A stretch of 64,000 nucleotides of DNA from a virus. Below are positions 2,278 through 32,335 of this stretch, one piece after another. Under the pieces are notes generated by a model. The model was not told where the DNA came from. It searched no databases and worked only from the letters and a program-made list of their open reading frames with translations. A program made the translations under genes and the position numbers. Location: positions 1-64,000 of the IMG/VR virus record IMGVR_UViG_3300042195_000059; one strand, given 5' to 3'. Positions within the stretch are counted from its first letter, which is position 1. The number at the start of each line of letters is the position of its first letter.

Positions 2278-2682
2278 CCACTTCCTAGCTTGATCGGGAA
2301 ACAGGGCGTAGACGAAAGCATCGTCCCGCTTGAGGGGGCCGTAATAACGGCGCTGAACGCATTCGAACTTGAAGCCGAGCCGCGTGATCAGGTCACGCAT
2401 GGTCTTGTTGTCGCGCCGGGTTGATGCGGTTACTCTGATGCAACCGAGATCGACGAACAGATGTGCGTAGCAAGCGCGGATGGTGCGGCGCGTCATCGCG
2501 CCCGGCGCATAGATCGTCAGATCGGCGTTGAAGCCGTTATAGCCTCCGACAACCCAGCCGCCGACAAGTTCTCCGGCATCGTTCAATATGCCGATTGCCC
2601 CGAATGGAGGAACGATTTCCTGCCCGAGGCATGACCCGATCCATCTTCCGACTTCGGCGTCACACCCGACCAGTAACCGCAT
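2188..2682 (-). CDS. GNAT-like acetyltransferase (tentative)
   Basis: 164 aa. C-terminal ..NKTMRDLITRLGFKFEC.. resembles the GNAT acetyl-CoA region. The start overlaps the upstream stop as TGATG. The 3' end overlaps the convergent HNH gene by 90 nt. Confidence 0.4.
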   Translation of the reverse strand: MRLLVGCDAEVGRWIGSCLGQEIVPPFGAIGILNDAGELVGGWVVGGYNGFNADLTIYAPGAMTRRTIRACYAHLFVDLGCIRVTASTRRDNKTMRDLITRLGFKFECVQRRYYGPLKRDDAFVYALFPDQARKWLPLPALDVRNSGTTNTISARQISANHTIA

Positions 2683-4265
2683 CAGATAAAGGCTCCGGAC
2701 TCCATCAAGACATCAAAACCATTCACGCGCAGTGTCGGGGCCAGATCCGCGCCGCCAACTGAAAGCACGCTGACTTTGCCCCGGATCGAGGCGCAATACC
2801 CTATGCCCGCAACGGTCGTCCAGTCCGCTATCGTCCGTTCCTCTTCCGGCCATACGTCTACGTCCCATACGGCTTCATCCCACTGAGCGCCCGGCGTTAT
2901 GCTGCTGTCGGGGACGGATAGCGGGGCGTCGTCGCGAAAGTCCGTATTGAATGCGATGCCAAGCGAGACCTGCCCGTCCGTCGTCAGGATCGGGCGACAC
3001 ATGACCCAGCGTTTCAGGTTGCCGCGCTGCTCGAAATAGTTGAAAGCCGTCTTGAACTCTGCCTCGATAGCCGAACCGTCGTCGGTCCCGCCTGTGTCAG
3101 CCTCGTAGACAATCCCGGCATTGCCGCCAAAGAACAGCCTGTCCTTGAACACCTCCCAGCAATTAGCCTCCTGGCCGAGGAACCGGCACCACGCGCCAGT
3201 CACGGTGTTCATGACATATTGCTGCTGCGATGCGTTAGCGGCGGCCGGAACGTTCAATATGGCGCGTGTTCCACGTGGATAGCTGATGAGCTGCCAGCCG
3301 AAATTGTCCGCCCAGTTGCGCGCCGCCTGGTTCATGGTGGGCTGAATATTTGCCGTCAGGGAGACGCTGATCGCCGCGCCGCGCTCGATGACCAGAGCGC
3401 GGCTGATCGGCAGGACGCCGTCGATCGATATGATGACGAGATCCGCGCCAACCCGCGTAAAACACCGCATCCCGATCGGTGGCCCGATCTGGAATACGCC
3501 TTTCAGTTGCCATGTCGCAGCGCTGTCCGGATCGATGCCGGAATAAATCGCCACTTGCCCCTTGGAGGAAACGAACGCTGCATAGTCCTCCGGCCCGTCG
3601 CCGCCGTCGATCGACCATGTTCCCATCGCAACGAGATAGCCGCCCAGCGAGAACAGCTTGCCAAGATCGAAGGTTGTTGCATCCCCCTGAATGGAGTTTG
3701 TCGGAAGGTATGCGGCCTTTGTCGAATCTGCGAGAACGAACCACAGGCGGTTTTTATGCACGTTGATGTTGACGATTTCGGAACTTGTGATGCCGGTGAT
3801 CGTCGGCGTTGCCCAGCTCGTGCCGTTGTAATATCTTGGCGCATCGGCTCCATTGCACACCCAGAGGAACTTGCCGCCGGTCGTGGTGAAGTTCACATGC
3901 TGGAAGCGGGCATTCGTCAGGGACGTGACATCAGCCGATGGCGTGTCCGTCGTCACATCATAGATCGTATCGTTCGCGGCGGCAAACAATGCATCGCCAG
4001 CGGCGGTATCGCCATGATACGCCATGAGGCTTTCAACAGGCGTCGTCTCGGTCGTGTCGCTGTGCTCGATGAACCCGTTACGGGTTTCGATATAGCCCGG
4101 CTGGGGAAACCAGTTGTCGATCTGGATCGCACGATCCGGGGCCATGTTTGCAAGAGGCGATATTGAATCCCAGCCCCCGGTCGGAGGCGGGACCGATGCA
4201 CCGCGCGCGACAACACCGCCGCCGCCGGTTCGCCGCTTGCGTTGAAGAACTGCCGTCAGTCGCAT
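2682..4265 (-). CDS. Virion structural protein (tail module), 527 aa
   Basis: Start moved to internal ATG 4265-4263 (MRLTAVLQRK..), which overlaps the upstream stop as TGATG. The first 63 tracked codons lie inside the upstream gene. Confidence 0.5.
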   Translation of the reverse strand: MRLTAVLQRKRRTGGGGVVARGASVPPPTGGWDSISPLANMAPDRAIQIDNWFPQPGYIETRNGFIEHSDTTETTPVESLMAYHGDTAAGDALFAAANDTIYDVTTDTPSADVTSLTNARFQHVNFTTTGGKFLWVCNGADAPRYYNGTSWATPTITGITSSEIVNINVHKNRLWFVLADSTKAAYLPTNSIQGDATTFDLGKLFSLGGYLVAMGTWSIDGGDGPEDYAAFVSSKGQVAIYSGIDPDSAATWQLKGVFQIGPPIGMRCFTRVGADLVIISIDGVLPISRALVIERGAAISVSLTANIQPTMNQAARNWADNFGWQLISYPRGTRAILNVPAAANASQQQYVMNTVTGAWCRFLGQEANCWEVFKDRLFFGGNAGIVYEADTGGTDDGSAIEAEFKTAFNYFEQRGNLKRWVMCRPILTTDGQVSLGIAFNTDFRDDAPLSVPDSSITPGAQWDEAVWDVDVWPEEERTIADWTTVAGIGYCASIRGKVSVLSVGGADLAPTLRVNGFDVLMESGAFI

Positions 4266-5595: not shown

Positions 5596-6219
5596 TCAAG
5601 TCTCCTCTTGCGCGCCGCGTCGGCCGCGTTTTGGTTTGTCGCTGTCCAACTCGTTTACGCGCTGCTCAAGCTTCGATACGATATCGCTCAGCTTGGCGAT
5701 TTCATTGTCCTTGGCGTCGAGCTTCGACTGAAACTCGTGGTAGTCCTTGCCTTTTTCGGCTGAATCCAGATAGCCTTGCGCCATCACCTGCCATTGCGAT
5801 GCGCCAAGTCCGAGGTTCTGCAATTGCCCAGTGCCCAGCGTCGCCAGTTGCTCGATGGTCAGCACATGCATGAACTCCAGCGTCTTGACAGCGCCGGGAT
5901 TGTGCGGGAACAGGACAGACAGCGGCGTGCCGTCGATCTTCTGCTGCTGCTTGGCTTCGAACGCCGCCCATTGCTGGGGAAAGCGTTGCTTGTCATCCGG
6001 ACGGACGCGGCGATCGCGCGTATCCTTCTCACCGGGTTGAATGATCGAGATATACGGGACCGATTCATAAATCGGGCGTCCCGCTTCCTGTGAGGCGGCC
6101 TTGCGCTGTTCCGGAAACATGTAGAATCTGGCCATCGCACGGTCCTGGAACTGAACGCGCTGGCCATTCTGGAATGACTTGTCGAAAGTCATCGGCAGGT
6201 TGGGGATTTCGGCTTCCAT
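5596..6219 (-). CDS. Hypothetical virion-module protein with C-terminal coiled coil
   Basis: 207-aa ORF in the late operon. C-terminus ..NEIAKLSDIVSKLEQRVNELD.. is heptad-like. Confidence 0.4.
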   Translation of the reverse strand: MEAEIPNLPMTFDKSFQNGQRVQFQDRAMARFYMFPEQRKAASQEAGRPIYESVPYISIIQPGEKDTRDRRVRPDDKQRFPQQWAAFEAKQQQKIDGTPLSVLFPHNPGAVKTLEFMHVLTIEQLATLGTGQLQNLGLGASQWQVMAQGYLDSAEKGKDYHEFQSKLDAKDNEIAKLSDIVSKLEQRVNELDSDKPKRGRRGAQEET

Positions 6220-11175: not shown

Positions 11176-12300
11176 TCATCTGAACCTTACTATCTGCTGG
11201 TCGTCTGGAACGTCCTGCGTTTCCCACGGGGGAGTGGCGCGGCGGTCTTCAGCGCTGAACTTGCGGCGTCTCTGGACGTTGCGGGCTTCGGTTTCGCCAG
11301 CAAGACGGCGATACGCGTCATGCGGATCTGCTGCGGCGCGCAAATTGTTCTCGATAACGAAATCAAAATCGCCGGTCACAGGATCGTAACCATCAGGATT
11401 TTTCCTTGCGCGTTCAAGCGCCTCCTGAAGGGTCTCCCTTGATGGGAATTGCATTGGGCTTCCACCGGGCGCAAAACCTTCTCGCCCTTGCACATTATGC
11501 TGAAGCTCGTGCAGGCCGATGCTCCTTGCGTCGTTCGGGTCAGTCCCTTCTACCAACATATAAGGCCACTTCTCATCGTGCCAATACGCGCCTTTCGGCT
11601 CCAAATCCGGCCCGTAGCTTCCGTACATGTCGGGGACATCGCCGTAAGCGGCAGAATATTCGGGATGATCAAGCCCCGTGAACTTGCCGGACTTGCTTGT
11701 CTGGAACATACCGGCTTTATCCGGAGTGACGCCGCTGAGCTGCGCGGCGCTGTCGTCGATCTCGAACTTCCACTTGCCATCGACGCCTTGCATCCATCCG
11801 GTGTCGCGCCAGATGTCATCACGTGACGCGCCGGAGGATGCCATTTCCTGAGCTTGCGCGAGCGCCTGCTGGTCCGCAGTTTTCGCTGTCGGTCCTGCAA
11901 AGATAGTCGTGGTGCTTCGCGGATCATCCGGATACACAGAGTCCAGCAGCCGGTTGAACCCTTCCGGCAAATTCCGGTCCATCCATGCAGCACCGCGTTT
12001 CGTGCCTCTGGCGACGATGCCAGCGCCGGGGATTGCGCCGACAAGCGCTGTCGCTAAATCACCGTAGTTTGAAGCGGCTTGCCCGTAATCGCCGCGCAAA
12101 AGTGCATCACCTCCCTGTCCGGAGGATTTCCACGCATCATAGAGGGACATCGCCTCGCCGGAGCCGGGAGCCATCCCGAGACCAAATTCAGCGGCTGGAA
12201 TCAGGTTGCGCCATGTCGCTTCCGGCGATATGCCTTGGCCATACGCGAAGATATCGTCAGGCGAGCCTAGCGCCAGATTACGGGCCGTTTGGCTTGGCAT
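11176..12300 (-). CDS. Head-module protein with HExxH zinc-metalloprotease-like motif
   Basis: The motif IGLHELQHNVQGREGF is present. Located between portal and scaffold. Confidence 0.4.
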   Translation of the reverse strand: MPSQTARNLALGSPDDIFAYGQGISPEATWRNLIPAAEFGLGMAPGSGEAMSLYDAWKSSGQGGDALLRGDYGQAASNYGDLATALVGAIPGAGIVARGTKRGAAWMDRNLPEGFNRLLDSVYPDDPRSTTTIFAGPTAKTADQQALAQAQEMASSGASRDDIWRDTGWMQGVDGKWKFEIDDSAAQLSGVTPDKAGMFQTSKSGKFTGLDHPEYSAAYGDVPDMYGSYGPDLEPKGAYWHDEKWPYMLVEGTDPNDARSIGLHELQHNVQGREGFAPGGSPMQFPSRETLQEALERARKNPDGYDPVTGDFDFVIENNLRAAADPHDAYRRLAGETEARNVQRRRKFSAEDRRATPPWETQDVPDDQQIVRFR

Positions 12301-23811: not shown

Positions 23812-24068
23812 GGCGCGGCTCCGTCATATGGATCGGGCGTTCCCTGCCAATCCGATGTTCGCTCAGTAATGCGCGGGCCATCGTCCGCCAGATAGCATTT
23901 GGCGTCCTCATAATGCTGGATATGGCGGCACTTCTTGCACGTGTCCCAATATTTAAAATAGTAAGGCGCTGCCGGTTTTGGCTTCCATCCAGACGGGTGC
24001 GCCTTTCTCGCCATTGGCTTCCTGCATTTTGGGCACGGGCTTCCCTTGCCAATCACTTTAGATTTCAT
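23802..24068 (-). CDS. Zinc-ribbon protein
   Basis: CPKC...CKKC cysteine pairs. Confidence 0.45.
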   Translation of the reverse strand: MKSKVIGKGSPCPKCRKPMARKAHPSGWKPKPAAPYYFKYWDTCKKCRHIQHYEDAKCYLADDGPRITERTSDWQGTPDPYDGAAPWE

Positions 24069-24403
24069 GCCGCATCCTCACCGCCATTCAGCCCTTCATA
24101 CGCTCGGCTGCTTTTCTCTATGACGCGGGCGACCGGCTCGCTGATATGCTCCCAGGCGTCGGGAAGCTCCGCGATGTGATCGTCCGGCCGATCCGCAAAT
24201 GATCCGCACCAGTCGCCGCCGAAAGACTGCGGCCAAGCGCCCTCAATGGCGCGAGCCGGAGCCATTACGGGGACCGGCGGGGACACGCGGCATTCACCGG
24301 CGCGGCGCTCAACCGGCATCTCCGAAGCCGTGACGCCGCCGTAAAGAGCGTTCATCTTCCACCAGCGGCAGTACATGCAAATTCGTTTCTGATCGCTGCT
24401 CAT
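24065..24403 (-). CDS. Hypothetical protein
   Basis: 112-aa ORF with 4-nt overlaps on both sides. Confidence 0.4.
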   Translation of the reverse strand: MSSDQKRICMYCRWWKMNALYGGVTASEMPVERRAGECRVSPPVPVMAPARAIEGAWPQSFGGDWCGSFADRPDDHIAELPDAWEHISEPVARVIEKSSRAYEGLNGGEDAA

Positions 24404-24660
24404 GCGTTAAATCCTTCCTCTTCCAGAACCCGGCGTTTTTCTGCTTCGAATTCCTCTCGGCCACAGATTTGCCAGTGTTTCAGACAAAGCCATTCGGGTA
24501 TATCGAACTTTGCAAACTGGTTTTTCTTGACGGGTCCATATGGCTTTACCTGCGACTTCGGAAGATAGAATACATCTTCACCTTTTGCATTTCTTGAACA
24601 TTTTAGCGCCTTGCCGCTAGATGTCTGCTCGATTACATAGATGTCCACAGTTCTTTTCAT
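24400..24660 (-). CDS. Hypothetical protein
   Basis: 86-aa ORF. Confidence 0.4.
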   Translation of the reverse strand: MKRTVDIYVIEQTSSGKALKCSRNAKGEDVFYLPKSQVKPYGPVKKNQFAKFDIPEWLCLKHWQICGREEFEAEKRRVLEEEGFNA

Positions 24661-25436
24661 GTCAGCCTCACTTTTTTACGTGCGCTTGCTATAGTCTTTT
24701 CTGCCTCCATCTTGTCCAAGCCAGTGGCTTGCGCGGCTTCTGCCAGCGTGGCGGCCCCGCCTGCGTCCAGAAGGCCCGTCTCGGCAGCGCGGCAAGCCGC
24801 CCAGAAAAGGCTGTTGTTCCGGACGCCCTCGCCGGATCTGGCGACGAAATTGACGAGCGGTGCGATGTCGGCAGATGGCTTTTGATCCGACCGCTTGAAA
24901 ACAGGTGGGGGCGCTGGCTTCAGCTTCTTGATTGCCCATGCCGGGAGTTTGGGGAAATCGCCGCCAAGCGGTGAATTTTCCCACCTATAGCGCTTGCCTC
25001 CGTCCAGGACGGAAGGCGGCGCGACCACATAGCCGCCCGTGGTTTTGATATCGATGCCGGGAGCCAGAACAGACTTGGAATTCTTCAGGCTCGGCTCATA
25101 GGCGTAATAAAAATGCGTCCCGCCGTTGGCCGTTCTGGCTGTCACCGTCGGCGGAAATTCAAAGCCTGCCTTCTTCAGATCGGCCACGGATTTGTCAGAT
25201 CCATTGCGCGGGTCCAGATCGATCACGATGCATTTCGACGGCAGCCCGGTCGCGATGCCGATGTTGGCCTTGGGTAAATGCCACGCCCAATCCTCGATTA
25301 TGTCGTCATCGTCAGTCGCATCGAGGCATCCCCGGCCGCCTTTCGCCTTTGAAATGGCAGGGATTTTTGCACCAGCCAGGAGCGGAAAGATCTTGAATCC
25401 GAGCGGCACAAGATAGAACGCTGCATCAAGAAACAT
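24657..25436 (-). CDS. Bifunctional DNA primase/polymerase (Prim-Pol) N-terminal domain protein
   Basis: ..GFKIFPL..K.P....GG..DATDD...I..W....ANIGIATG....VIDLDPRNG...GTHFYY..GIDIKTTGGYVVAPPS.. matches the Prim-Pol pattern. Confidence 0.75.
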   Translation of the reverse strand: MFLDAAFYLVPLGFKIFPLLAGAKIPAISKAKGGRGCLDATDDDDIIEDWAWHLPKANIGIATGLPSKCIVIDLDPRNGSDKSVADLKKAGFEFPPTVTARTANGGTHFYYAYEPSLKNSKSVLAPGIDIKTTGGYVVAPPSVLDGGKRYRWENSPLGGDFPKLPAWAIKKLKPAPPPVFKRSDQKPSADIAPLVNFVARSGEGVRNNSLFWAACRAAETGLLDAGGAATLAEAAQATGLDKMEAEKTIASARKKVRLT

Positions 25437-25439
25437 GGC

Positions 25440-26537
25440 TCAATCCTTCCAGATTTCTTTGACGCCCTGCGTAGCAATGGAGTCATGTGAAAGCCGGAAT
25501 TCATTGGCGATGAACTTCGCCGCGACGGTGCCTTTCCTGCCCATCTTGCGCTCGACCTTCGCCTTGTCGAGGCGGATGATCGAATGCCCGTTCTTGGGGT
25601 CAAATTTCTTTGTGCGCGCAATGCAGATGCCCCGATCGGCCTTGTTCCCAAAGTTCGAAGATCCGAAGGCATGGCCGATCTTGAACGGCTCGATTCCGCC
25701 ATCGCCCTTGATGAACTTGCCGGGGATATGCGTGGCAATCACCATGATGATTTGCAGCTCGTCCACGAGATCGCGGAAAGCGCGCATGACATCCTTGACG
25801 TAATCGGTTTCCATCTGGCGCGGGTCGCGCTGATGATCCATTTCGTTCCATGGATCTAGGAAAAAAAACCGCGTTCCGTAGCGCCGGAAATGGTAGCGGA
25901 CGAGATCCATGTACCACGAGACAAGCCGATCCTCGGACGCACGCCGGCGAACGAAATGGATCTTGTTCATCAGGTCCGGCGCGCGGTTATCGTTGGCGAA
26001 CAGGTTGATGTTGCGCTTGACCTCGCTGCCCAGATCTTCCCAGGAGCACAGCATAGCGCCGCTGCCCAGCATCCGGCCGGCTTCGCTCTCATGAACGAAG
26101 TTCGCTGCAAGGATCTGGCCGATTGTGGATTTGCCGCAGCCATAAGGCCCGCAGAGAATAACCAGTTCTGGCAAGCGCCAGTACCATCCAAGCTCAGCTT
26201 GCAGGAAGGGAATGCCGGTCGGGTAAACCTTGAAATCTTCTTCCGTGATCTGCGAAACCGGGACCACATCATCCCAGAACAGATGCTTCGGCGATCCGAT
26301 CCGAACAAACAGATCATCGCCTTTTTGGAGATCCACATAGCTTAGCCGAGACGCGTCGAGCCCCCTTGCCATCAGGGACAGAGCCGCATCTTTCGGCTCA
26401 TCCCCACGTCCCAGCACGATCAGTTCTCCGCTCGACAAATCGGCCTGTTCCAGATCGGAAAGCATGTACGCCGTTTCGTTGACATCGCGCAGACTGTTGA
26501 AATCGTCCACGGACATCGTGAGCCACGTTCGGGTCAT
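25440..26537 (-). CDS. P-loop replicative helicase (DnaB C-terminal/RepA-like)
   Basis: Start moved to ATG 26537 (MTRTWLTMSV..), an ATGA overlap. Walker A CGPYGCGKST. Walker B FFFLDPWNE. Confidence 0.7.
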   Translation of the reverse strand: MTRTWLTMSVDDFNSLRDVNETAYMLSDLEQADLSSGELIVLGRGDEPKDAALSLMARGLDASRLSYVDLQKGDDLFVRIGSPKHLFWDDVVPVSQITEEDFKVYPTGIPFLQAELGWYWRLPELVILCGPYGCGKSTIGQILAANFVHESEAGRMLGSGAMLCSWEDLGSEVKRNINLFANDNRAPDLMNKIHFVRRRASEDRLVSWYMDLVRYHFRRYGTRFFFLDPWNEMDHQRDPRQMETDYVKDVMRAFRDLVDELQIIMVIATHIPGKFIKGDGGIEPFKIGHAFGSSNFGNKADRGICIARTKKFDPKNGHSIIRLDKAKVERKMGRKGTVAAKFIANEFRLSHDSIATQGVKEIWKD

Positions 26538-27415
26538 AGCAGCTCTCCCGTGTAGGTTCCGTTCAAGCTGTATGAACCGTTCATTTTTCGGTGTTTTTGA
26601 TCGAGATTTCCGAACTGCTTGGCCTTGCGCATCCAGGTCTGAAAAGCCTGATCCCAGTTCAAAAACCGATTTCCCTTCGACTGGTGGAAATCTCGAAATG
26701 CATCGAACTGCTCGGCGATTTGCTCCGCAGTGGCTCCGATCTTGTTCCCCTTCGCCCACGAAATCGTCTCAGCCGCTGGTTGCCAATCCGGGGGCATTCG
26801 ACGAGCGCGTTTTTTGGGCTCTGCCGGTTCATCCGAATTTTCATCGTGGGGACCAACAGGGGTATTTTTATTGGTAGTATTTTCTTTAGGGGGTGTGGGG
26901 GGTATTTCTTTTTGCGTGGCATCACCGTGACCCTCGCTTTTTGACACCTCGGTATCACCGTGACCCTTGCTCTGTGATACCTCGGTATCTGGGAGACCCT
27001 CGCTTTTTGAACCCGGTATCACAAAGAGACCGGCTTTCTGATACCTGGCTCTCAATGACCCGGTATCACTGTGACCCTTGGTTCTGACGGTCAAGCTCTC
27101 CAGCGCTGCTTCAATATCAGTGATGGTAATGCACGATTTTGGTGTATACTCAGTTGTTGCACCGTGGTTCGGATTGACCTCAAAGAACGCTTTCAGCAGC
27201 CCGTAGGAACGCTTGAACGTGGCCTCCGAACATGATGCATCAGCGAGAATTTCGGCTCGACGCGGCGACGCTTTGCCGCCGGCCTTCTGCGCACGGCGGG
27301 CGATGACGAGCTGAATCAGCTTTTGCTGCGCGGATGCCGGCGATGAAACGACGAGATCGAAGAACTCGTTAAAATCGAACGGCGGGATATTATGCCCCTG
27401 TCCTGGTGGGTTCAT
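26534..27415 (-). CDS. Replication initiator-like protein carrying internal iterons
   Basis: Start moved to ATG 27415 (MNPPGQGHNIPPF..), an ATGA overlap. Located immediately upstream of the helicase. The central low-complexity part is encoded by the iteron array. Confidence 0.55.
   Translation of the reverse strand: MNPPGQGHNIPPFDFNEFFDLVVSSPASAQQKLIQLVIARRAQKAGGKASPRRAEILADASCSEATFKRSYGLLKAFFEVNPNHGATTEYTPKSCITITDIEAALESLTVRTKGHSDTGSLRARYQKAGLFVIPGSKSEGLPDTEVSQSKGHGDTEVSKSEGHGDATQKEIPPTPPKENTTNKNTPVGPHDENSDEPAEPKKRARRMPPDWQPAAETISWAKGNKIGATAEQIAEQFDAFRDFHQSKGNRFLNWDQAFQTWMRKAKQFGNLDQKHRKMNGSYSLNGTYTGELL
26918..27082. repeat. Iteron array (putative phage ori) inside the initiator gene
   Basis: Five copies of GG(T/C)ATCAC(C/T)GTGACCCT(C/T)G(C/G)T-like 21-mers start at 26918, 26951, 26984, 27015 and 27062, mostly spaced 33 bp apart. 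Inverted GTGATACC copies lie at 26974-26981; a partial TGATACC lies at 27039-27045. Confidence 0.55.
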
Positions 27416-27693
27416 GCTGCGCCTCCTTTCCGTAGGAGATTCATGCACTTCTTGCATTTTGTGAAATTTCCAGGTGCGAATAGCGGGCACTGGCCATTGT
27501 GGAGGAACGCCGGAGCGTCTACGCTCTCGCACAGGCTCTTGTAACCACGGTCGTGACGGAGCCAGAAATGCACCTTTTGCCGGCTGACGAAGCTTAGCTG
27601 CTTGGCCCAGACTTTTGAGATGCCGTGCGGAAGTTCTCCGCCTGTGCATTTGAAGCCGGTATCCGGCATCAGGGGAACGACGTTCTCACCCAT
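27412..27693 (-). CDS. Hypothetical Cys-rich protein
   Basis: 93-aa ORF. ATGA overlap downstream. Confidence 0.4.
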   Translation of the reverse strand: MGENVVPLMPDTGFKCTGGELPHGISKVWAKQLSFVSRQKVHFWLRHDRGYKSLCESVDAPAFLHNGQCPLFAPGNFTKCKKCMNLLRKGGAA

Positions 27694-27898
27694 TGACGCC
27701 TCCCTGAACAGGCTGGAGAAACGACACGTGGATCATTTCAGGCTGTTTCCGGCCGTCTAATAAGACCTTGAATCGCTGGTCTGTTCTTGGATGCGGCGCT
27801 ACGATGACGCCGGTTTTCGGAAGGATTCTGTCCCGCGGGAACATCCTTGCGAAAGCGTCGTTGGTTTCGATGCGATCTCCGGGTTTGAGCTTAGACAT
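27686..27898 (-). CDS. Hypothetical protein
   Basis: 70 aa with a GGGAGG RBS upstream of ATG 27898. Confidence 0.45.
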   Translation of the reverse strand: MSKLKPGDRIETNDAFARMFPRDRILPKTGVIVAPHPRTDQRFKVLLDGRKQPEMIHVSFLQPVQGGVNG

Positions 27899-28367
27899 TT
27901 GCGCCTCCCTTTATGCGATCGATGATGGAGCGGAGGGCGCGGGCTTGGCCCAACGTGATGGTAAGATCGTTTCGATCCACGCCTCCGCGCGGGAGGCGAC
28001 GCGGGAAGAACCGCTCCTGCAAGCGCTCAATGAGGTTTCGATCCACGCCTCCGCGCGGGAGGCGTGGATCGAAGTAGTCCGGTAATGGCGGCTCAGGGTA
28101 TTTTTGCTCACGCTTCTCAAGCGCTTGCATGATAGGCTCTGCCGCCTCTATCAGATCTGTGACCCCAAGTGCCGAAAGGACTATCTCTGCAGAAATCTCG
28201 ATGATTTCCTCGTGGTCCCCTACGGCGACGCCCTCGGGAAGATTCCGTGGATCTCCGCTCTTGCCGATGATGGTGAGAGTCTTACCGTCTTCTGATTTGA
28301 GGACAGCAGGGCATGCGCCGATAGAGCAACGATGCTGAGGGGTGGTGATGTTTATGAGTTTGGTCAT
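27891..28367 (-). CDS. Hypothetical protein whose 3' third is occupied by the CRISPR-like repeat pair
   Basis: 158-aa ORF. The N-terminal ~95 aa look like ordinary coding sequence. The C-terminal part contains the duplicated PRLPRGGVDRN encoded by the repeats. Confidence 0.35.
   Translation of the reverse strand: MTKLINITTPQHRCSIGACPAVLKSEDGKTLTIIGKSGDPRNLPEGVAVGDHEEIIEISAEIVLSALGVTDLIEAAEPIMQALEKREQKYPEPPLPDYFDPRLPRGGVDRNLIERLQERFFPRRLPRGGVDRNDLTITLGQARALRSIIDRIKGGANV
27969..28066 (-). CRISPR. Orphan mini-array: two type I-C-like 32-nt repeats and one 34-nt spacer
   Basis: An identical 30-mer occurs at 27969-27998 and 28035-28064. The minus-strand unit is GTCGCCTCCCGCGCGGAGGCGTGGATCGAAAC. 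The spacer is 28001-28034. No cas genes in the window. Confidence 0.5.
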
Positions 28368-28777
28368 GCGCGCTCTCCCACTGGCTGGAAGGGCTTTGAA
28401 CTGGATACAGAGGGGATAGGGGCTGTAAGCCTCTCAGGAAGCGCGACAGGGCCAAGTTCGGAAAAAGCCAGCCGTGACATCAGCTCATAGAAATCGGCGT
28501 CCACGGCGTCAGGAAGCAGCCTCAGGGCATATAGCCATCCAACGGCGACTTCCTCGTCATAACAGCCGGTAAGCCATTCATTGATGACGCCGTGAAGGAT
28601 GATCTCGGTGGTGGTTTGATCCGCGTTGAGCTTTGCGCGCCATGCGGAGGTTTCACGGCGGCGGTATTCGCCGGAGTCAACGATGGTGGCGTCAAGCGTC
28701 ACGTCGTCGAGGATGTTTCCACTGTCAAGATATGGCTCTTGATCTTGCCTCAATTCGGCGCTATATGGTGTAGACAT
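28364..28777 (-). CDS. Hypothetical protein
   Basis: 137-aa ORF with a 4-nt overlap downstream. Confidence 0.4.
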   Translation of the reverse strand: MSTPYSAELRQDQEPYLDSGNILDDVTLDATIVDSGEYRRRETSAWRAKLNADQTTTEIILHGVINEWLTGCYDEEVAVGWLYALRLLPDAVDADFYELMSRLAFSELGPVALPERLTAPIPSVSSSKPFQPVGERA

Positions 28778-28942
28778 GGTGTTCTGGCCTCATCTTTTTG
28801 AGGTTTGTGTTAATTCCTGTCGCTGAAAACTGATCTGCCCGATCACGTCTTCAGCACTCGGCTTGGTCAGCCCTTCGAAAGACTCAAAACTCAACAAACG
28901 TTTTTGCTTGGCACCCCGGTTCGCGGCCGGGGTCCAACACCT

Positions 28943-30250
28943 CTATGCCGCTTTCCTCTTCGCGATTGACTGGCGTATGACAGCGCCGTAAACGACGCCC
29001 TTGGAGTTGCGCGCCCTGTCGACAAATTCGCCGATGAAACGCCCAAAATGATTACGACCAACAGGGCTTCGGTCGTTGTCACGGCACCAGCGGCGGAAGT
29101 CGGTGTAGATGTCGTCGCCCGCCGTGCCGCCGGCCTTCCACCCGCCCTTTGAGGTCAGGTTGATTTCAGCTGATGACGACGCTGTATCCAGCCGCTCATC
29201 GACGTAAGAGCTTACGAGGGCACGGTTTTGCCGGTCGATGATCTCTTTCTTCCGGCGCTTCTCATCCCGCTTCTTGACGGGAGGTTCATAGAGCGTGACG
29301 ACGTTGTTCTCAGGCTGTACGGTGTCGTCAGGCTTGCCGTCAGGCTCAGCAACCGGCGTGCCTCCATCGTCAGGCGCAGCCGGCGGTGCAGGCGGCTCCG
29401 GCGCTGCCGTGACGGAACGTGTCACAGGCTTTACAGGCAGCGTCAGGGACGGCGTGTAAGCCTTGCGGGGGATGATGATGGCAGGCGCCACGGGACGCCT
29501 TGCAAAGAATGGCGACCAGATCGCCCACAGTCCAAAGGCCGTTGCTGCCTCCACGAGAAGTGCGATGAAAATCTTGACGAACAGGACAATCGATCCGTCA
29601 TCAACGCCACTGACGGCAGATAGCGAATTGGTTCTCGGATCAACCACCGTCACGCGATCGGTTTTCTTCAGCTCTTCACGCTTGAGCGCAAGCTGTCCGT
29701 CCAGCCACATGGCGCGCTCAGCATGGCCGATCTCCGCCTCCAGCTTGCCGAATGTCGGGCAATGCTTCTCCGTAACGGGGCCGTCTATCTTGACGCACCC
29801 GTTGATGCCGGGAATACGCAGGAGCGCGTCGATGTCGGCCTTGATGGTCTTCATCGGCCTGACATCAAGAACCTGTTCACGCTGCGCCTTCAGGCGCGTG
29901 ATCTCTGCCGTCAGCTCATGCCATTCTGATGCCGCTTTTCCGCGCGAGTCTTGAAGCGTGGAGAATTTTGACGATATAAATCCTACGGCTGATATCATCG
30001 ACCACACCGTAAAGCCGATGAACAGGAGCAGGAGCGCGCCGCCCTGAAACCAGTGCCGATTGCGCCAGAGTGAGAACACGCCGATCAGAGCCACGACCTT
30101 GATGAGGTCAGAAGCAACCGACACTCCGCCGATGACCGGCCCACCGAAATCCATCCCATAGATGAAGTTCGCAGCGGTCGAAGCGGTTATGAGGACGAGC
30201 AGCGCCGCAGAGACCGGCAACACCCACCAGAGATCTTTTCGCTCAGACAT
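28943..30250 (-). CDS. Multi-pass membrane protein with coiled-coil and proline-rich linker
   Basis: 435 aa. There are about 4 N-terminal TM helices, a further TM pair around FVKIFIALLVEAATAFGLWAIW, and a PEPPAPPAAPDD linker. A GGGGAAAG RBS is present. Confidence 0.5.
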   Translation of the reverse strand: MSERKDLWWVLPVSAALLVLITASTAANFIYGMDFGGPVIGGVSVASDLIKVVALIGVFSLWRNRHWFQGGALLLLFIGFTVWSMISAVGFISSKFSTLQDSRGKAASEWHELTAEITRLKAQREQVLDVRPMKTIKADIDALLRIPGINGCVKIDGPVTEKHCPTFGKLEAEIGHAERAMWLDGQLALKREELKKTDRVTVVDPRTNSLSAVSGVDDGSIVLFVKIFIALLVEAATAFGLWAIWSPFFARRPVAPAIIIPRKAYTPSLTLPVKPVTRSVTAAPEPPAPPAAPDDGGTPVAEPDGKPDDTVQPENNVVTLYEPPVKKRDEKRRKKEIIDRQNRALVSSYVDERLDTASSSAEINLTSKGGWKAGGTAGDDIYTDFRRWCRDNDRSPVGRNHFGRFIGEFVDRARNSKGVVYGAVIRQSIAKRKAA

Positions 30251-30356
30251 TTGACTTTCCCCGACTTGTGAGAGATACTTGATCGGTTTTTACGGGGACG
30301 CATTACAGGGGGACTTCACAAGCAGGTTGGCTGGCGGGCCGCCTGCTTTCGCTTTT

Positions 30357-30476
30357 TTAGACGCCTGGCAGCATGCTAGTAGCCGCATCCAGATATTCAG
30401 CGGCGAAGTAGATAATCGCTATGACGGCAACGCCGATGGCGAGATACCAAAACCACTTCGGGATGTATGGGGGCAT
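30357..30476 (-). CDS. Small single-pass membrane protein (39 aa, below ORF-track cutoff)
   Basis: My translation is MPPYIPKWFWYLAIGVAVIAIIYFAAEYLDAATSMLPGV. The ATG lies 4 nt after the upstream stop. Confidence 0.35.
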   Translation of the reverse strand: MPPYIPKWFWYLAIGVAVIAIIYFAAEYLDAATSMLPGV

Positions 30477-30479
30477 TGC

Positions 30480-30737
30480 TCAGTCTCCCTTGAGGTAAGT
30501 TGCAAAAACGCCTGCGGTCCTTACAATGGCTCCGGCGTCGAAGTTTTCAGCCTTGGCGCAAGCCTGTATCGCCAGTTCCAGCGCTGTATGACGGCGGCCT
30601 TCTTCTATTCCTTCGGACAACGCCGGAGAGAACATTCCGACGCCCTGACCGTTCGTTCCGACTGGACCGAAATTGTCCAAAATGTCGTCACCGTTCATTT
30701 TCTCAGTCTCCATATTCGCCCGGCAGCCTATTGCCAC
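30480..30737 (-). CDS. Hypothetical protein
   Basis: 85-aa ORF directly downstream of the porin gene. The competing plus-strand ORF 30279-30749 looks like a shadow. Confidence 0.35.
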   Translation of the reverse strand: MAIGCRANMETEKMNGDDILDNFGPVGTNGQGVGMFSPALSEGIEEGRRHTALELAIQACAKAENFDAGAIVRTAGVFATYLKGD

Positions 30738-30758
30738 CGGGCTTTGTGAAACGTTAGA

Positions 30759-31694
30759 TTAGAAGCTGTTGAGCTTGATTTTCAGCGTGCCGAGAATTTT
30801 GGTTTCGCTGAGATCATCGCTGACGCTAGCGCCGACGTTGCTGTCAGCGTCGTAGGCATCGAAGATCGTCTCTTTGTCGTAGAAGGTGTGGGTGCCTTCG
30901 ATACCGAAGAAGACATTGTTGGCCACGGCAAGCTCGATACCGGCTCCGACAGTGATGCCGTCGAAAGTGGTGGTCTTGCTGAGAGTGGCCGCGCCGTCTG
31001 TGACGCTCAGATCGTATTCAGTCTGGGTGTAGGCAGCGAGGGCGTACAGCAGGGTGCTGTTGTTGACCAGCACACCGGCGCGAACGCCTGCCGACCAGTC
31101 ATCGCCGCGTTCGAGTTTGAAGCTGCCGACGCCAGCAACAGAGCCGTCAGCGTCCATGTTCGAGAAGCCATAGGTGCCGAAGACGCCGACCAGAAAGCGG
31201 TTGCTGAGCTGCTGGTCATAGCCAGCGCGAACATCGCCGACGATGCCGGTGCTATTCAGGCCGTCGAGGTGAGCGATTTCGCGACTATCGCCGGGGACTG
31301 TAGCGAAATCGCCTTCTTTCGCAGGAAAGATTTTATACGGATTGCCATGAGTGACAGTTTCACAAGAAAGCCAATCTGTCGTCGGTACGACAGCTTTATC
31401 AATTCTTGTTGCTAAGGTATCATCACGATCCTTATTGCCAAATGGATCGAAGTCCAAGTCAGCGGTATCGTCTGAGCAATAGTCCTTGAAATAATCCCGC
31501 ACGCTCAGATCATGGTTGGCATTCCCATACCCGATAGCGCCGCCGAGATAAAAGCCGCTCCAGTTCACCGCAGTTCCCTGTGGAGCTGGATCGTTAAGGG
31601 AGTCGAGAAGATCGCTGGATTGAGCGAAATTCGGCGAAAAAATGACCAGTGAGGCCGCAATCGCCATAGACAACTTTGAGATTTGCATGTACAA
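30759..31694 (-). CDS. Outer-membrane beta-barrel protein, Omp25/Omp31 (OMP_b-brl) family
   Basis: Signal peptide MQISKLSMAIAASLVIFSPNFAQS. NWSGFYLGGAIGYG motif. Alternating beta-strand pattern. Terminal ..LKIKLNSF aromatic residue. Confidence 0.7.
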   Translation of the reverse strand: MYMQISKLSMAIAASLVIFSPNFAQSSDLLDSLNDPAPQGTAVNWSGFYLGGAIGYGNANHDLSVRDYFKDYCSDDTADLDFDPFGNKDRDDTLATRIDKAVVPTTDWLSCETVTHGNPYKIFPAKEGDFATVPGDSREIAHLDGLNSTGIVGDVRAGYDQQLSNRFLVGVFGTYGFSNMDADGSVAGVGSFKLERGDDWSAGVRAGVLVNNSTLLYALAAYTQTEYDLSVTDGAATLSKTTTFDGITVGAGIELAVANNVFFGIEGTHTFYDKETIFDAYDADSNVGASVSDDLSETKILGTLKIKLNSF

Positions 31695-31765
31695 TTTTCC
31701 TATGTTGACAGTGACGTATTTACATCACCAGTGTACCCGGCGTTTCCCCCGCCGGGATCTCGTTT

Positions 31766-32335
31766 TCAAGCAGCCGCTTGATTGAATTTCCCTGTTTCGT
31801 CGCCCCATGAGTCCCAGCCGGTACGATCCGTGCGACTGAACAGCTCGACGCGCCAAGCATCCGGCAGATAGCGTTCTGCCCATGCGTAAGCTTCGTCCGG
31901 TTTGCGTGAGTGCTCTCTGACAAGTCCCTCGATGACGTTGCGCTCTGATCGCGAATTGATCGGATTGCCGATGAAGCCCAGAAGGAAGGGTTCGGAGGCG
32001 GAGCGCACGCGGTAGCCGGTGCCGAACGCCGTCTTGCCGTTCACGGTCTTCTTGTGCCAAACGCCGCCGGTTTTATAGTCGAAGCCCCAAGCGCTCATGA
32101 CTTCGAACGCCTTGTCGAGCATGGGCCATGTCGCCCAGAGAAAGAGGCAGCAGTCGCCAGATGCGAGTTGTGAAACCGGAAGCGCTTTGATAGCCTCAAG
32201 ATCCATGCAATCGTAATGGTGCTTGGCGTTTTTCTTCTCGCCCTTGACGCTCCAGTTCATGAAGTTCCAAGGCGGGTCGGCGACAATCATTCCGTATGTG
32301 AGCGGGCGCAAGGGCGCGAAGGGCCAGTCTGTCAT
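31766..32335 (-). CDS. MT-A70 family N6-adenine DNA methyltransferase
   Basis: Start moved to ATG 32335 (MTDWPF..), an ATGA overlap. Catalytic IVADPPWNF motif. Confidence 0.8.
   Translation of the reverse strand: MTDWPFAPLRPLTYGMIVADPPWNFMNWSVKGEKKNAKHHYDCMDLEAIKALPVSQLASGDCCLFLWATWPMLDKAFEVMSAWGFDYKTGGVWHKKTVNGKTAFGTGYRVRSASEPFLLGFIGNPINSRSERNVIEGLVREHSRKPDEAYAWAERYLPDAWRVELFSRTDRTGWDSWGDETGKFNQAAA

Follow-up and report, generated by a model that had tools for sequence, protein, structure and literature searches.

A conserved phage gene in the window, by which we mean the whole 64-kb stretch of DNA analysed (positions 1 to 64,000 of the IMG/VR record IMGVR_UViG_3300042195_000059), contains a type I-C CRISPR repeat-spacer-repeat within its reading frame. 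This intragenic element is certainly real and recent. We give a probability of roughly 60% to the reading that it was recently copied from a bacterial array and that it stands at a former phage protospacer, after the PAM. Its borders, a PAM and a short duplication, suggest how phages gain such repeats. The features on which the argument rests are the following:

27891-28367, minus strand: host gene for a 158-aa phage protein, conserved and of unknown function, with 22 homologues
27935-27968, minus strand: putative protospacer P, GATCTTACCATCACGTTGGGCCAAGCCCGCGCCC, placed from the empty site and the general pattern
27965-27968, minus strand: downstream copy of the target duplication, GATC, equal to the first 4 nt of P
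27969-28000, minus strand: downstream repeat unit, a canonical 32-nt type I-C repeat, GTCGCCTCCCGCGCGGAGGCGTGGATCGAAAC
28001-28034, minus strand: spacer, 34 nt, CTCATTGAGCGCTTGCAGGAGCGGTTCTTCCCGC
28035-28066, minus strand: upstream repeat unit, 30/32 nt canonical, its first 2 nt being CA and not GT
28037-28073, no strand: perfect 16-bp palindrome with arms 28037-28052 and 28058-28073 and a 5-nt loop
28067-28070, minus strand: upstream copy of the target duplication, GATC, or CGATC (5 nt) with the ambiguous C included
28071-28073, minus strand: TTC, the PAM of type I-C, immediately preceding the first copy of the duplication

Two copies of the 30-mer GTTTCGATCCACGCCTCCGCGCGGGAGGCG, and no more, are present in the window (27969-27998 and 28035-28064, a period of 66 nt); it was matched in 0 of 100 shuffles. 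An initial annotation of this DNA had described such an identical pair, and both copies were recovered in the places it gave. Its account of the units was also borne out. Read from 28000 to 27969, the downstream unit is the 32-nt repeat listed above and agrees at 32/32 positions with the canonical form GTCGC-stem-loop-stem-GTGGAT(C/T)GAAAC. The upstream unit, read from 28066 to 28035, differs from it in the first two nucleotides alone, and the perfect-stem palindrome was found with the 16-bp arms that had been claimed. The outer 7 bp of this palindrome are native gene sequence, TTCGATC. A separate inverted similarity, between the spacer and 28120-28143, comes from AGCGCT/TGCA palindromes and was taken as chance.

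The 32-nt unit proved to be an authentic repeat of type I-C. The downstream unit is identical at 32/32 positions to the array repeats of two loci (L003 and L007), and arrays of the exact repeat occur in Sphingomonas, Xanthobacter, Pedomonas and others, with 5-74 copies and a period of about 66 nt. In the Pedomonas locus (L007), cas5c-cas8c-cas7-cas4-cas1c-cas2 lie directly upstream of the array on the same strand, and 6/6 of these cas genes exceed the NCBIfam cut-offs. The resemblance to type I-C (Dvulg) repeats, which the initial annotation had pointed out, is thus confirmed as an identity: the exact repeat forms long arrays, and these adjoin a complete set of I-C cas genes with the same orientation. 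The commonest spacer length in arrays with this repeat is 34 nt (85/202 spacers), in agreement with the claimed I-C geometry of a 32-nt repeat plus a 34-nt spacer. The repeat family was present in 48 of 80 further I-C loci. The exact 30-mer was found at 12 loci of the genome collection (genome_contigs), 10 of them arrays; the remaining two are a pair of copies at a contig end (L005) and a single copy in a MAG, beside an integrase and IS fragments (L008). Over genome_contigs and viral_contigs, the 30-mer appeared in arrays or as solitary units only, and the solitary ones were that MAG copy and one viral contig (L015), where the repeat stands 17 nt upstream of a gene start. With this distribution and two copies in the window, the 30-mer withstood the suggestion, made at the outset, that it might be a dispersed REP-type palindrome. 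Rfam gave no family match, only two chance matches (E ~0.8). As for the existence of I-C systems with a similar repeat, systems with the exact repeat were found in these genome loci.

The gene that contains the element is conserved. All 22 homologues share an N-terminal domain and an invariant C-terminal tail, ALRSIIDRIKGG, and the stop of the gene overlaps the start of the next one. Peptide-pattern scans of representative genomes (genome_contigs) found no relatives. The element forms a 34-aa insert (residues 100-133) in a variable linker and is missing from 21/21 other homologues; an AlphaFold2 model has low confidence across the insert. The 158-aa ORF reads through both units and contains the peptide PRLPRGGVDRN twice, as had been stated from the translation. 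Two options had been offered for this ORF, either a fortuitous tail or a coding gene that has absorbed repeat units. The latter holds, in view of the 22 homologues and the empty site described below, and the former is discarded.

The closest relative, L013, has retained the empty site, in which GGATTACTT is directly followed by CGATCTCACC, with a single CGATC. When the DNA of the two sites was aligned, the filled site proved to exceed the empty one by 102 nt; CGATC stands at both of its borders, and the flanks are about 95% identical. Such a clean empty site identifies the element as a 102-nt in-frame insertion in the variable linker. The TTC in front of the first duplication copy is the PAM of type I-C (PMC8406640). 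In the empty-site relative, P comes directly after this TTC; in the window, it comes directly after the repeat end ...GAAAC, like a spacer in an array, and the right border accordingly reads GAAAC followed by GATCTTACC. The left border in the window is without a canonical TTC at -37. The insertion is known from one contig, so selection is not supported. Among the origins put forward in the initial annotation, a relic of recombination with a host array is the one now directly supported, by the empty site together with the duplicated target and the PAM.

We propose the following course of events, as read from the junctions. The element would have landed in a conserved early gene, directly after a TTC PAM, with duplication of 4 nt of target. 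The right border is the junction that would be expected in a host array after normal spacer acquisition from this phage site. First, a type I-C host would have taken P from this phage as a spacer. Phage DNA with a probable break at the P site may then have been repaired or recombined against the array by way of the P homology, and the repair would have copied repeat, neighbouring spacer and repeat into the phage. The left side may have been rejoined by way of 7 complementary nt (TTCGATC:GATCGAA), the strand being switched within the hairpin of the repeat; such a switch would account for both the CA and the perfect 16-bp palindrome. The left border would thereby require a two-step template switch. 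The insert presumably survived because it is 102 nt long, in frame, free of stop codons and placed in a length-variable linker, and because it left intact both the C-terminal tail and the coupling of the gene to the one that follows. Since the PAM was split from P, the phage would escape that spacer with no coding sequence lost.

Three other routes of origin were considered. Off-target spacer integration by Cas1-Cas2 into a pre-existing repeat was rejected because the empty site has no repeat, and restriction and ligation at GATC because it is at odds with the fragment sizes. A "giant prespacer" model, which has the two ends of a broken phage genome integrated at a single repeat, was retained as a sub-variant only; it does not predict TTC at -37. 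Among 92 I-C loci, no host array contained P or the adjacency of window spacer, repeat and P, and the spacers compared with the window (first 202, then 1,709 from these 92 loci) gave no match.

The same layout was found in other phage contigs. Exact 32-nt repeats lie there between duplications of 4, 7, 7, 7 and 15 nt, and each of the five duplications has TTC or TTT before it. Duplications of at least 5 nt were observed 4 times, compared with 0.24 expected (P = 1e-4). TTC or TTT stands at the equivalent position in L120, L135, L190, L239 and L142, and also in L198, L205, L225 and L245. In L120, a conserved head-morphogenesis-like gene carries a second insertion that keeps the frame, and this case has an empty site of its own. 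In L173 and L165, the order is TTC, 34 nt, the repeat and the same 34 nt again. The downstream 6-mer recurs upstream in 12 units, and TTC or TTT precedes the upstream copy in 8 of them, compared with 0/15 in controls (Fisher P = 2e-4). Among 111 units, made up of phage-borne I-C solitary repeats and mini-arrays, 31 had TTC 33-36 nt upstream of the repeat, where about 7 were expected. Counted by offset from the repeat start (-39 to -36), TTC occurred 6, 5, 14 and 7 times against 1.8 expected each, a peak with P of about 1e-9 to 1e-12; the PAM pattern was first spotted during data exploration, and a second set of 10 units gave one more candidate only. As a separate observation, the repeat in L116 falls near the 5' end of a small but real gene, in a portion that is hypervariable; the case is ambiguous, since the repeat may belong to the 5' UTR rather than to the reading frame.

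Taken together, the PAM-plus-duplication borders and the TTC peak in viral I-C repeats point to the host's adaptation machinery and array as the source. We would extend this further only tentatively, at a little under even odds: phage-borne repeats, both Racr-type solitary ones and mini-arrays, may arise at protospacers targeted by host immunity. By such a general route, a phage would recombine with the host array, or Cas4-Cas1-Cas2 would join phage to array, and a repeat or a repeat-spacer-repeat would end up inserted right after the PAM. The scar left behind would consist of PAM, duplicated protospacer start, repeat and protospacer. The split between PAM and protospacer would give immediate escape, even in essential genes when the insertion is in frame, and the insertion would also seed RNA that mimics host repeats. 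On this view, the window would show a recent case of the route, in frame and inside a conserved gene.

What the element might do at the RNA level depends on its fold. As RNA, the downstream unit has the canonical hairpin: a stem of 7 bp closes a 5-nt loop, and 11 nt remain single-stranded as the tail. The upstream unit together with the native TTCGATC forms a perfect stem of 16 bp (-32 kcal/mol), which pairs 9/11 nt of the would-be crRNA 5' handle. The initial annotation had held that the two units supply exactly what one crRNA needs; the extended upstream stem speaks against clean production, and since the upstream handle is sequestered, a properly matured crRNA is doubtful. No minus-strand promoter or terminator was found adjoining the element. 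We expect transcription of the element, in sense orientation, as part of the early operon. In an I-C host, Cas5c should bind and cut the canonical downstream repeat, the transcript would serve as a Racr-like repeat decoy, and it could also yield a crRNA-like species with a host-derived spacer.

A rival idea is that the element is kept as an RNA anti-CRISPR, either as a Racr decoy that ties up Cas5c and Cas7 or as a Cracr, a crRNA-like regulator that silences host immunity through a partial spacer match to a cas or toxin promoter. We consider this unlikely. There is precedent in RacrIC1, a solitary I-C repeat that inhibits I-C immunity (PMC10651486), and in the Cracr elements of phages, which include I-C examples and two-spacer arrays (bioRxiv 10.1101/2024.10.29.618823). 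The solitary repeat upstream of the L015 gene start fits the same idea, as do the more than 100 viral contigs in which members of the repeat family stand alone. Like RacrIC1, the element is a phage-encoded copy of a type I-C repeat, and its transcript could occupy Cas5c and Cascade subunits. However, Racrs are single intergenic repeats expressed as small RNAs, often after a promoter and near acr genes, whereas the window has two repeats with a full-length 34-nt spacer inside an ORF, no nearby minus-strand promoter and no recognisable acr or aca among the neighbours, which have no Pfam or PHROG match. With the Cracrs and the host CreR/CreA mini-arrays (bioRxiv 10.1101/2024.10.29.618823; 10.1101/2023.03.03.530964) it shares the scheme of phage repeat-spacer units that load host Cas proteins, and I-C and multi-spacer examples exist. 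By contrast, the spacers of Cracrs partly match cas or toxin promoters, with at least 9 PAM-proximal matches to such a promoter of the targeted locus as the criterion, and no promoter match was found for the window spacer in 92 I-C loci. A PAM-plus-seed scan over these loci (1.6 Mb, leaving out the cas3-upstream regions of exact-repeat systems) gave no convincing match; its one match, TTC plus 11/12 inside a Mesorhizobium cas8c, reaches 13/34 overall and is compatible with chance. In addition, the measured I-F Cracr spacers are shorter than their bacterial counterparts, whereas the window spacer is full length and the repeats are canonical.

Somewhat less probable still is a viral mini-array kept for competition between phages, by which the I-C Cascade and Cas3 of the host would be aimed at a competing phage or plasmid (superinfection exclusion). 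Matches to Pfam and PHROGs in the window are phage functions, and the gene content includes a terminase, capsid-region genes, replication genes, RecT and an integrase; with the integrase and RecT, the virus looks temperate. The claim that the window has no cas genes was upheld by tblastn, Pfam and PHROGs: tblastn with six I-C Cas proteins, and with an upstream ORF fragment of L007 that is possibly a Cas3 C-terminus, gave nothing below E = 0.06 in the 64 kb. The phage has a GC content of 56-58%, its terminase shares only 37% identity with those of known phages, and megablast of 24000-32000 against phages gave no match. Virus-borne CRISPR mini-arrays (Faure et al. 2019; Medvedeva et al. 2019) are, as reviewed in PMC11656645 and PMC8616872, an established class with host-identical repeats and spacers that mostly match related viruses. 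The window element resembles them in having one spacer between two repeats identical to those of a cellular system, in a temperate-looking virus without cas genes, and it has a canonical repeat, a canonical 34-nt spacer and sense orientation in the early operon. IMG/VR contigs also hold other I-C mini-arrays (13 two-copy and 4 three-copy units). The known ones, however, are intergenic with their own leader or promoter, whereas this one is intragenic and in frame: neither cas genes nor a leader adjoin it, its flanks are coding sequence of the phage gene, and it lacks a promoter of its own. Its upstream repeat is locked in the 16-bp stem, so that the crRNA 5' end may not form; its processing would cleave the message from which a conserved gene and those downstream of it are translated; and the element is missing from all 21 other homologues. 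Its arrival, moreover, is documented by an empty site, a target duplication and a PAM, which sets it apart from the known mini-arrays.

Most known mini-array spacers target related viruses, and no such target was found for the window spacer. A search of viral_contigs with every sixth base left free, using the full length and both halves, gave 0 matches. The first 23 nt gave 7 matches in metagenome_contigs and 7 in genome_contigs, which agree at 21-26 of 34 nt and none of which has a TTC PAM; exact-pattern searches of this kind would overlook diverged targets. BLAST against GenBank phages and PLSDB plasmids gave only E values of at least 0.1. A Tn3 of Sphingomonas aerolata was rejected as a target since the alignment needs a 3-nt gap. 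No credible protospacer appeared in related loci, and the window holds no self-target, the longest match being 10 nt. The protospacer with a TTC PAM that the initial annotation had suggested looking for was not found in the viral, metagenome, genome, phage and plasmid sequences searched.

That the element is no biological CRISPR element at all, being a chance or REP-type palindrome or a chimeric assembly of host array and phage contig, is highly improbable, even though the window was assembled from a metagenome, an identical protein (P0001) is known from one JGI contig only and GC-rich palindromes are common in such genomes, because the downstream unit equals the array repeats beside I-C cas genes at 32/32 positions, the 30-mer has 2 copies in the window and 0 in shuffles and lies in arrays or solitary units only in genome and viral contigs, the same gene continues in frame on both sides with a target duplication, a chimera would not come back to the same gene after 98 nt, and the same architecture recurs in independent contigs from other samples.

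Recent copying from a bacterial array thus remains our preferred reading, and it can be compared with what is known of recombination and integration. Recombination between phages and CRISPR loci through spacer-protospacer homology has been described (Varble et al. 2019, as cited in PMC7099407), and type I-C integration by Cas4-Cas1-Cas2 is polarised (10.1101/2022.05.30.494039; PMC6519985). The borders of the phage-borne units resemble array junctions of two kinds: a spacer end joined to a repeat start, 33-36 nt after the PAM, and a repeat end joined to the first protospacer base right after the PAM. Those studies, in contrast, cover the transfer of CRISPR loci or the insertion of spacers into arrays. 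In the literature that we searched, there was no report of repeats deposited in phage genes with a PAM-plus-duplication scar, and no account of how phages acquire solitary repeats or mini-arrays.

Phage-borne solitary repeats and mini-arrays are known tools of counter-defence and competition. The SRUFinder pipeline masked ORFs and took intragenic matches as probable false positives (PMC10651486); if our reading is true, searches for viral CRISPR elements should take in coding regions. It would also provide a sequence signature for detecting such events, as well as a link from phage to host, in that the phage must have replicated in an I-C host with this repeat. Above all, a single mechanism would join spacer acquisition, escape from CRISPR and the birth of RNA anti-CRISPRs.

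A conserved phage gene in the window, ORF 27891-28367 on the minus strand, encodes a 158-aa protein with 22 metagenomic homologues, in which the N-terminal domain is conserved, the C-terminal tail ALRSIIDRIKGG is invariant and the linker varies in length and sequence. The window protein alone carries the 34 residues DPRLPRGGVDRNLIERLQERFFPRRLPRGGVDRN. In a DNA alignment, the gene of its closest relative (P0002, locus L013) shows a clean 102-nt gap against the window gene, with flanks about 95% identical: the empty site reads ...GGATTACTT joined to CGATCTCACC..., and the filled site reads ...GGACTACTT, then CGATCCA, 30-mer, spacer and repeat, then CGATCTTACC.... Since the gap is clean and the gene conserved, a repeat-spacer-repeat unit has entered the coding sequence, leaving the frame, the C-terminal tail and the start overlap with the following gene intact. 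AlphaFold2, run on the family alignment, gave a model (mean pLDDT 67) in which confidence is low where the insert lies, between a helix at residues 69-89 and a C-terminal one at 139-152. The initial annotation had left open whether the ORF tail was fortuitous or a coding gene had taken up repeats; the gene's homologues and the empty site in L013 settle this for the second option. A second length difference lies at window 28150-28160 (alignment columns 222-278), where L013 carries 57 nt (19 aa) of the gene that are lacking in the window. Separately, homologue P0018 carries a fused DNA cytosine methylase domain.

The ORF spans the whole element without a break. The parts of the element are as follows.

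27969-28000, minus strand: downstream unit, the 32-mer GTCGCCTCCCGCGCGGAGGCGTGGATCGAAAC
28001-28034, minus strand: spacer, the 34-mer CTCATTGAGCGCTTGCAGGAGCGGTTCTTCCCGC
28035-28066, minus strand: upstream unit, identical to the downstream unit except for its first two bases (CA)
28037-28052 and 28058-28073: perfect 16-bp inverted repeat

The window holds just two copies of the shared 30-mer GTTTCGATCCACGCCTCCGCGCGGGAGGCG, at 27969-27998 and 28035-28064, and 100 shuffles gave no match. Thus the repeat pair, spacer, palindrome and ORF first described are all present. No cas gene was found in the 64 kb. The gene content (terminase, replication initiator, helicase, primase, methyltransferase, RecT and integrase; 56-58% GC) looks like that of a temperate phage.

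Twelve loci of the representative-genome collection contain the exact 30-mer, in organisms including Sphingomonas, Sphingobium, Xanthobacter, Pedomonas and Hephaestia. In ten of these loci, 5 to 74 copies form an array with a period of about 66 nt and spacers of 33-39 nt (mode 34); the other two hold two copies at a contig end (L005) and a single copy (L008). The full repeat of the arrays is identical to the downstream unit (32/32). In the Pedomonas locus (L007), cas5c, cas8c, cas7, cas4, cas1c and cas2, all exceeding NCBIfam cut-offs, precede the array on the same strand, and this order and strand settle both the subtype and the reading direction of the repeat. The likeness to type I-C repeats proposed in the initial annotation is thereby confirmed. 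The repeat family GTCGC-N13-GCGTGGAT(C/T)GAAAC was seen in 48 of 80 further I-C loci. Solitary copies lie in two bacterial loci. The one in L008 (5013-5044, a Sphingosinicella MAG) is a full copy of the window repeat right beside integrase sequences (a gene and an N-terminal fragment) and an IS5-like transposase remnant, and probably sits in a decayed mobile element. The other, near-canonical, lies 55 nt upstream of cas5c within the I-C cas operon of Shinella daejeonensis (L076:9914-9945) and may be a host crRNA-like regulator (CreR-type).

The empty site has a single GATC (CGATC with the ambiguous C), and in the window a copy flanks the insert at either end. The three bases ahead of the first copy (28073 to 28071, minus strand) are TTC, the type I-C PAM (PMC8406640). 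The right border reads ...GGATCGAAAC followed by GATCTTACC; lying at the TTC-adjacent putative protospacer P (27935-27968, minus strand), it has the form that a host array would take after normal acquisition of that protospacer. In the window phage, the repeat end now precedes the protospacer in place of the PAM. At the left border, the native TTCGATC is complementary to the repeat's GATCGAA, which together with CA instead of GT completes the perfect 16-bp stem. Most simply, priming on this 7-nt complementarity would have been followed by a strand switch inside the 7-bp repeat stem, a course that reproduces the sequence including the forward-oriented loop CGCGC; alternatively, GT may have been corrected to CA later through template switching. 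The left border has no TTC at -37.

In a scan of IMG/VR, members of the repeat family turned up in more than 130 contigs, mostly as solitary units and in some as two- and three-repeat mini-arrays. Several loci carry an exact repeat flanked by a duplication.

Loci with an exact repeat: duplication and preceding three bases
L135: 4-nt duplication, TTC
L120: 7-nt duplication, TTC
L190: 7-nt duplication, TTC
L239: 7-nt duplication, TTT
L142: 15-nt duplication, TTT

In L198, L205, L225 and L245, imperfect or slightly offset duplications likewise follow TTC or TTT. In 12 units, the downstream 6-mer recurs no more than 30 nt upstream; TTC or TTT precedes the upstream copy in 8 of them, against 0 of 15 shifted-word controls (Fisher P = 2e-4). 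L120:2895-2926 (IMGVR_UViG_3300045242_000069) is a second in-frame case: within a conserved gene for a 445-aa, head-morphogenesis-like protein (2618-3955), one exact I-C repeat plus the duplication GTTGCAG (39 nt, 13 codons) follows TTC. This insert is missing from all 11 aligned homologues, and the empty site was confirmed in DNA (L121).

We quantified PAM offsets for 111 unique I-C repeat units (IMG/VR loci L015 and L116-L250). The start of TTC relative to the repeat start peaked sharply at -39 to -36 (counts 6, 5, 14 and 7, versus 1.8 expected per offset), so that 31 units, against about 7 expected, have TTC there (33-36 nt upstream of the repeat). The pattern, first noticed during exploration of the data, has P ~5e-9 at -37 by itself and ~2e-12 over the four offsets together; a small second set of 10 units gave only one further candidate. 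GAA or TTC downstream of the 111 units showed no comparable peak. Hence, in about 28% of units, the 33-36 nt ahead of the repeat are a PAM-flanked, spacer-like phage protospacer ending exactly at the repeat. Two loci have the complete form, TTC, 34 nt, repeat and the same 34 nt (32/34 and 34/34 identical, respectively), which reads as a spacer-repeat-spacer made from the phage's own protospacer.

L173, 1090-1121: solitary I-C repeat
L165, minus strand, 5724-5755 of the reverse-complemented locus: solitary I-C repeat

Other phage units differ in setting. About 10% of the 111 units lie in long sense-strand open frames (e.g. L180, an 888-codon frame), versus 48% for random positions. An unrelated viral contig (L015:9588-9619, IMGVR_UViG_3300026196_000022) has the window's exact 32-nt repeat on its own, 17 nt ahead of a gene start; this is a candidate Racr-type unit. 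Two intergenic phage elements each have an intrinsic terminator behind them: L117 (minus strand, 3941-4113 of the reverse-complemented locus), with three repeats and two spacers, and L119:14127-14158, with one repeat and about 22 nt. A small conserved gene (ORF 3393-3647, minus strand) has a hypervariable 5' part that contains the solitary repeat L116:3590-3621, either translated or in the 5' UTR; the C-terminal motif HAPHGKVYCADGHEEAVLIAR of this ORF is common to more than 150 proteins.

[quoted passage not shown] We infer that the borders of phage-borne repeats are these two junctions. An I-C host would have acquired a spacer at this phage site; the phage would then have recombined with that array, or been repaired from it, and carried off repeat-spacer-repeat between PAM and protospacer. 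Phage-array recombination via spacer homology is reported in Varble 2019, as cited in PMC7099407. The element's spacer would be the host spacer that neighboured P in the array, which fits the absence of a findable target.

The displaced PAM would allow escape from spacer P with no coding sequence lost. Near the element, no minus-strand promoter or terminator was seen, so it is presumably transcribed in sense within the early operon. In RNA folding, the downstream repeat forms a 7-bp stem with a free 11-nt tail, and this canonical repeat in the sense transcript should be recognised by Cas5c. Nine of the 11 handle nucleotides of the upstream unit are paired in a stem of -32 kcal/mol, and in the whole-element fold its left arm can pair with the downstream repeat as well. 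For these two reasons, correct maturation of a crRNA seems doubtful, and the element would more plausibly act as a decoy than guide targeting.

The element could possibly be a mini-array kept for inter-phage competition, but this handle sequestration counts against it, processing would cost a cut in the operon mRNA, and the search for a phage or plasmid target of the spacer, suggested in the initial annotation, returned no credible one in viral, metagenome or genome contigs, GenBank phages or PLSDB plasmids. Retention as a Racr (a solitary-repeat RNA anti-CRISPR) or Cracr (a viral crRNA-like regulator) has precedent in RacrIC1 and the I-C Cracrs (PMC10651486; 10.1101/2024.10.29.618823); the element, however, is neither solitary nor intergenic, and no cas-promoter match to its spacer was found in 92 I-C loci. 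One partial match lies antisense within cas8c of Mesorhizobium sp. CAU 1741 (L110, minus strand, position 12096): a TTC, then 11 of the first 12 spacer bases with the mismatch at position 6, and 13/34 over the whole spacer. It is probably chance. An artefact or REP element is excluded for practical purposes by the shuffles, the 30-mer in I-C arrays, the empty site in L013 and the second case in L120.

The element belongs with virus-borne mini-arrays and solitary repeat units and would work like them. Unlike them, it is intragenic and in frame, has an empty-site relative and carries a PAM-plus-duplication scar, of which our literature search found no earlier account. The Racr study masked ORFs and took intragenic matches as likely false positives (PMC10651486). 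Because of the borders of the window element, hypotheses on how phages came to carry CRISPR repeats can be tested.
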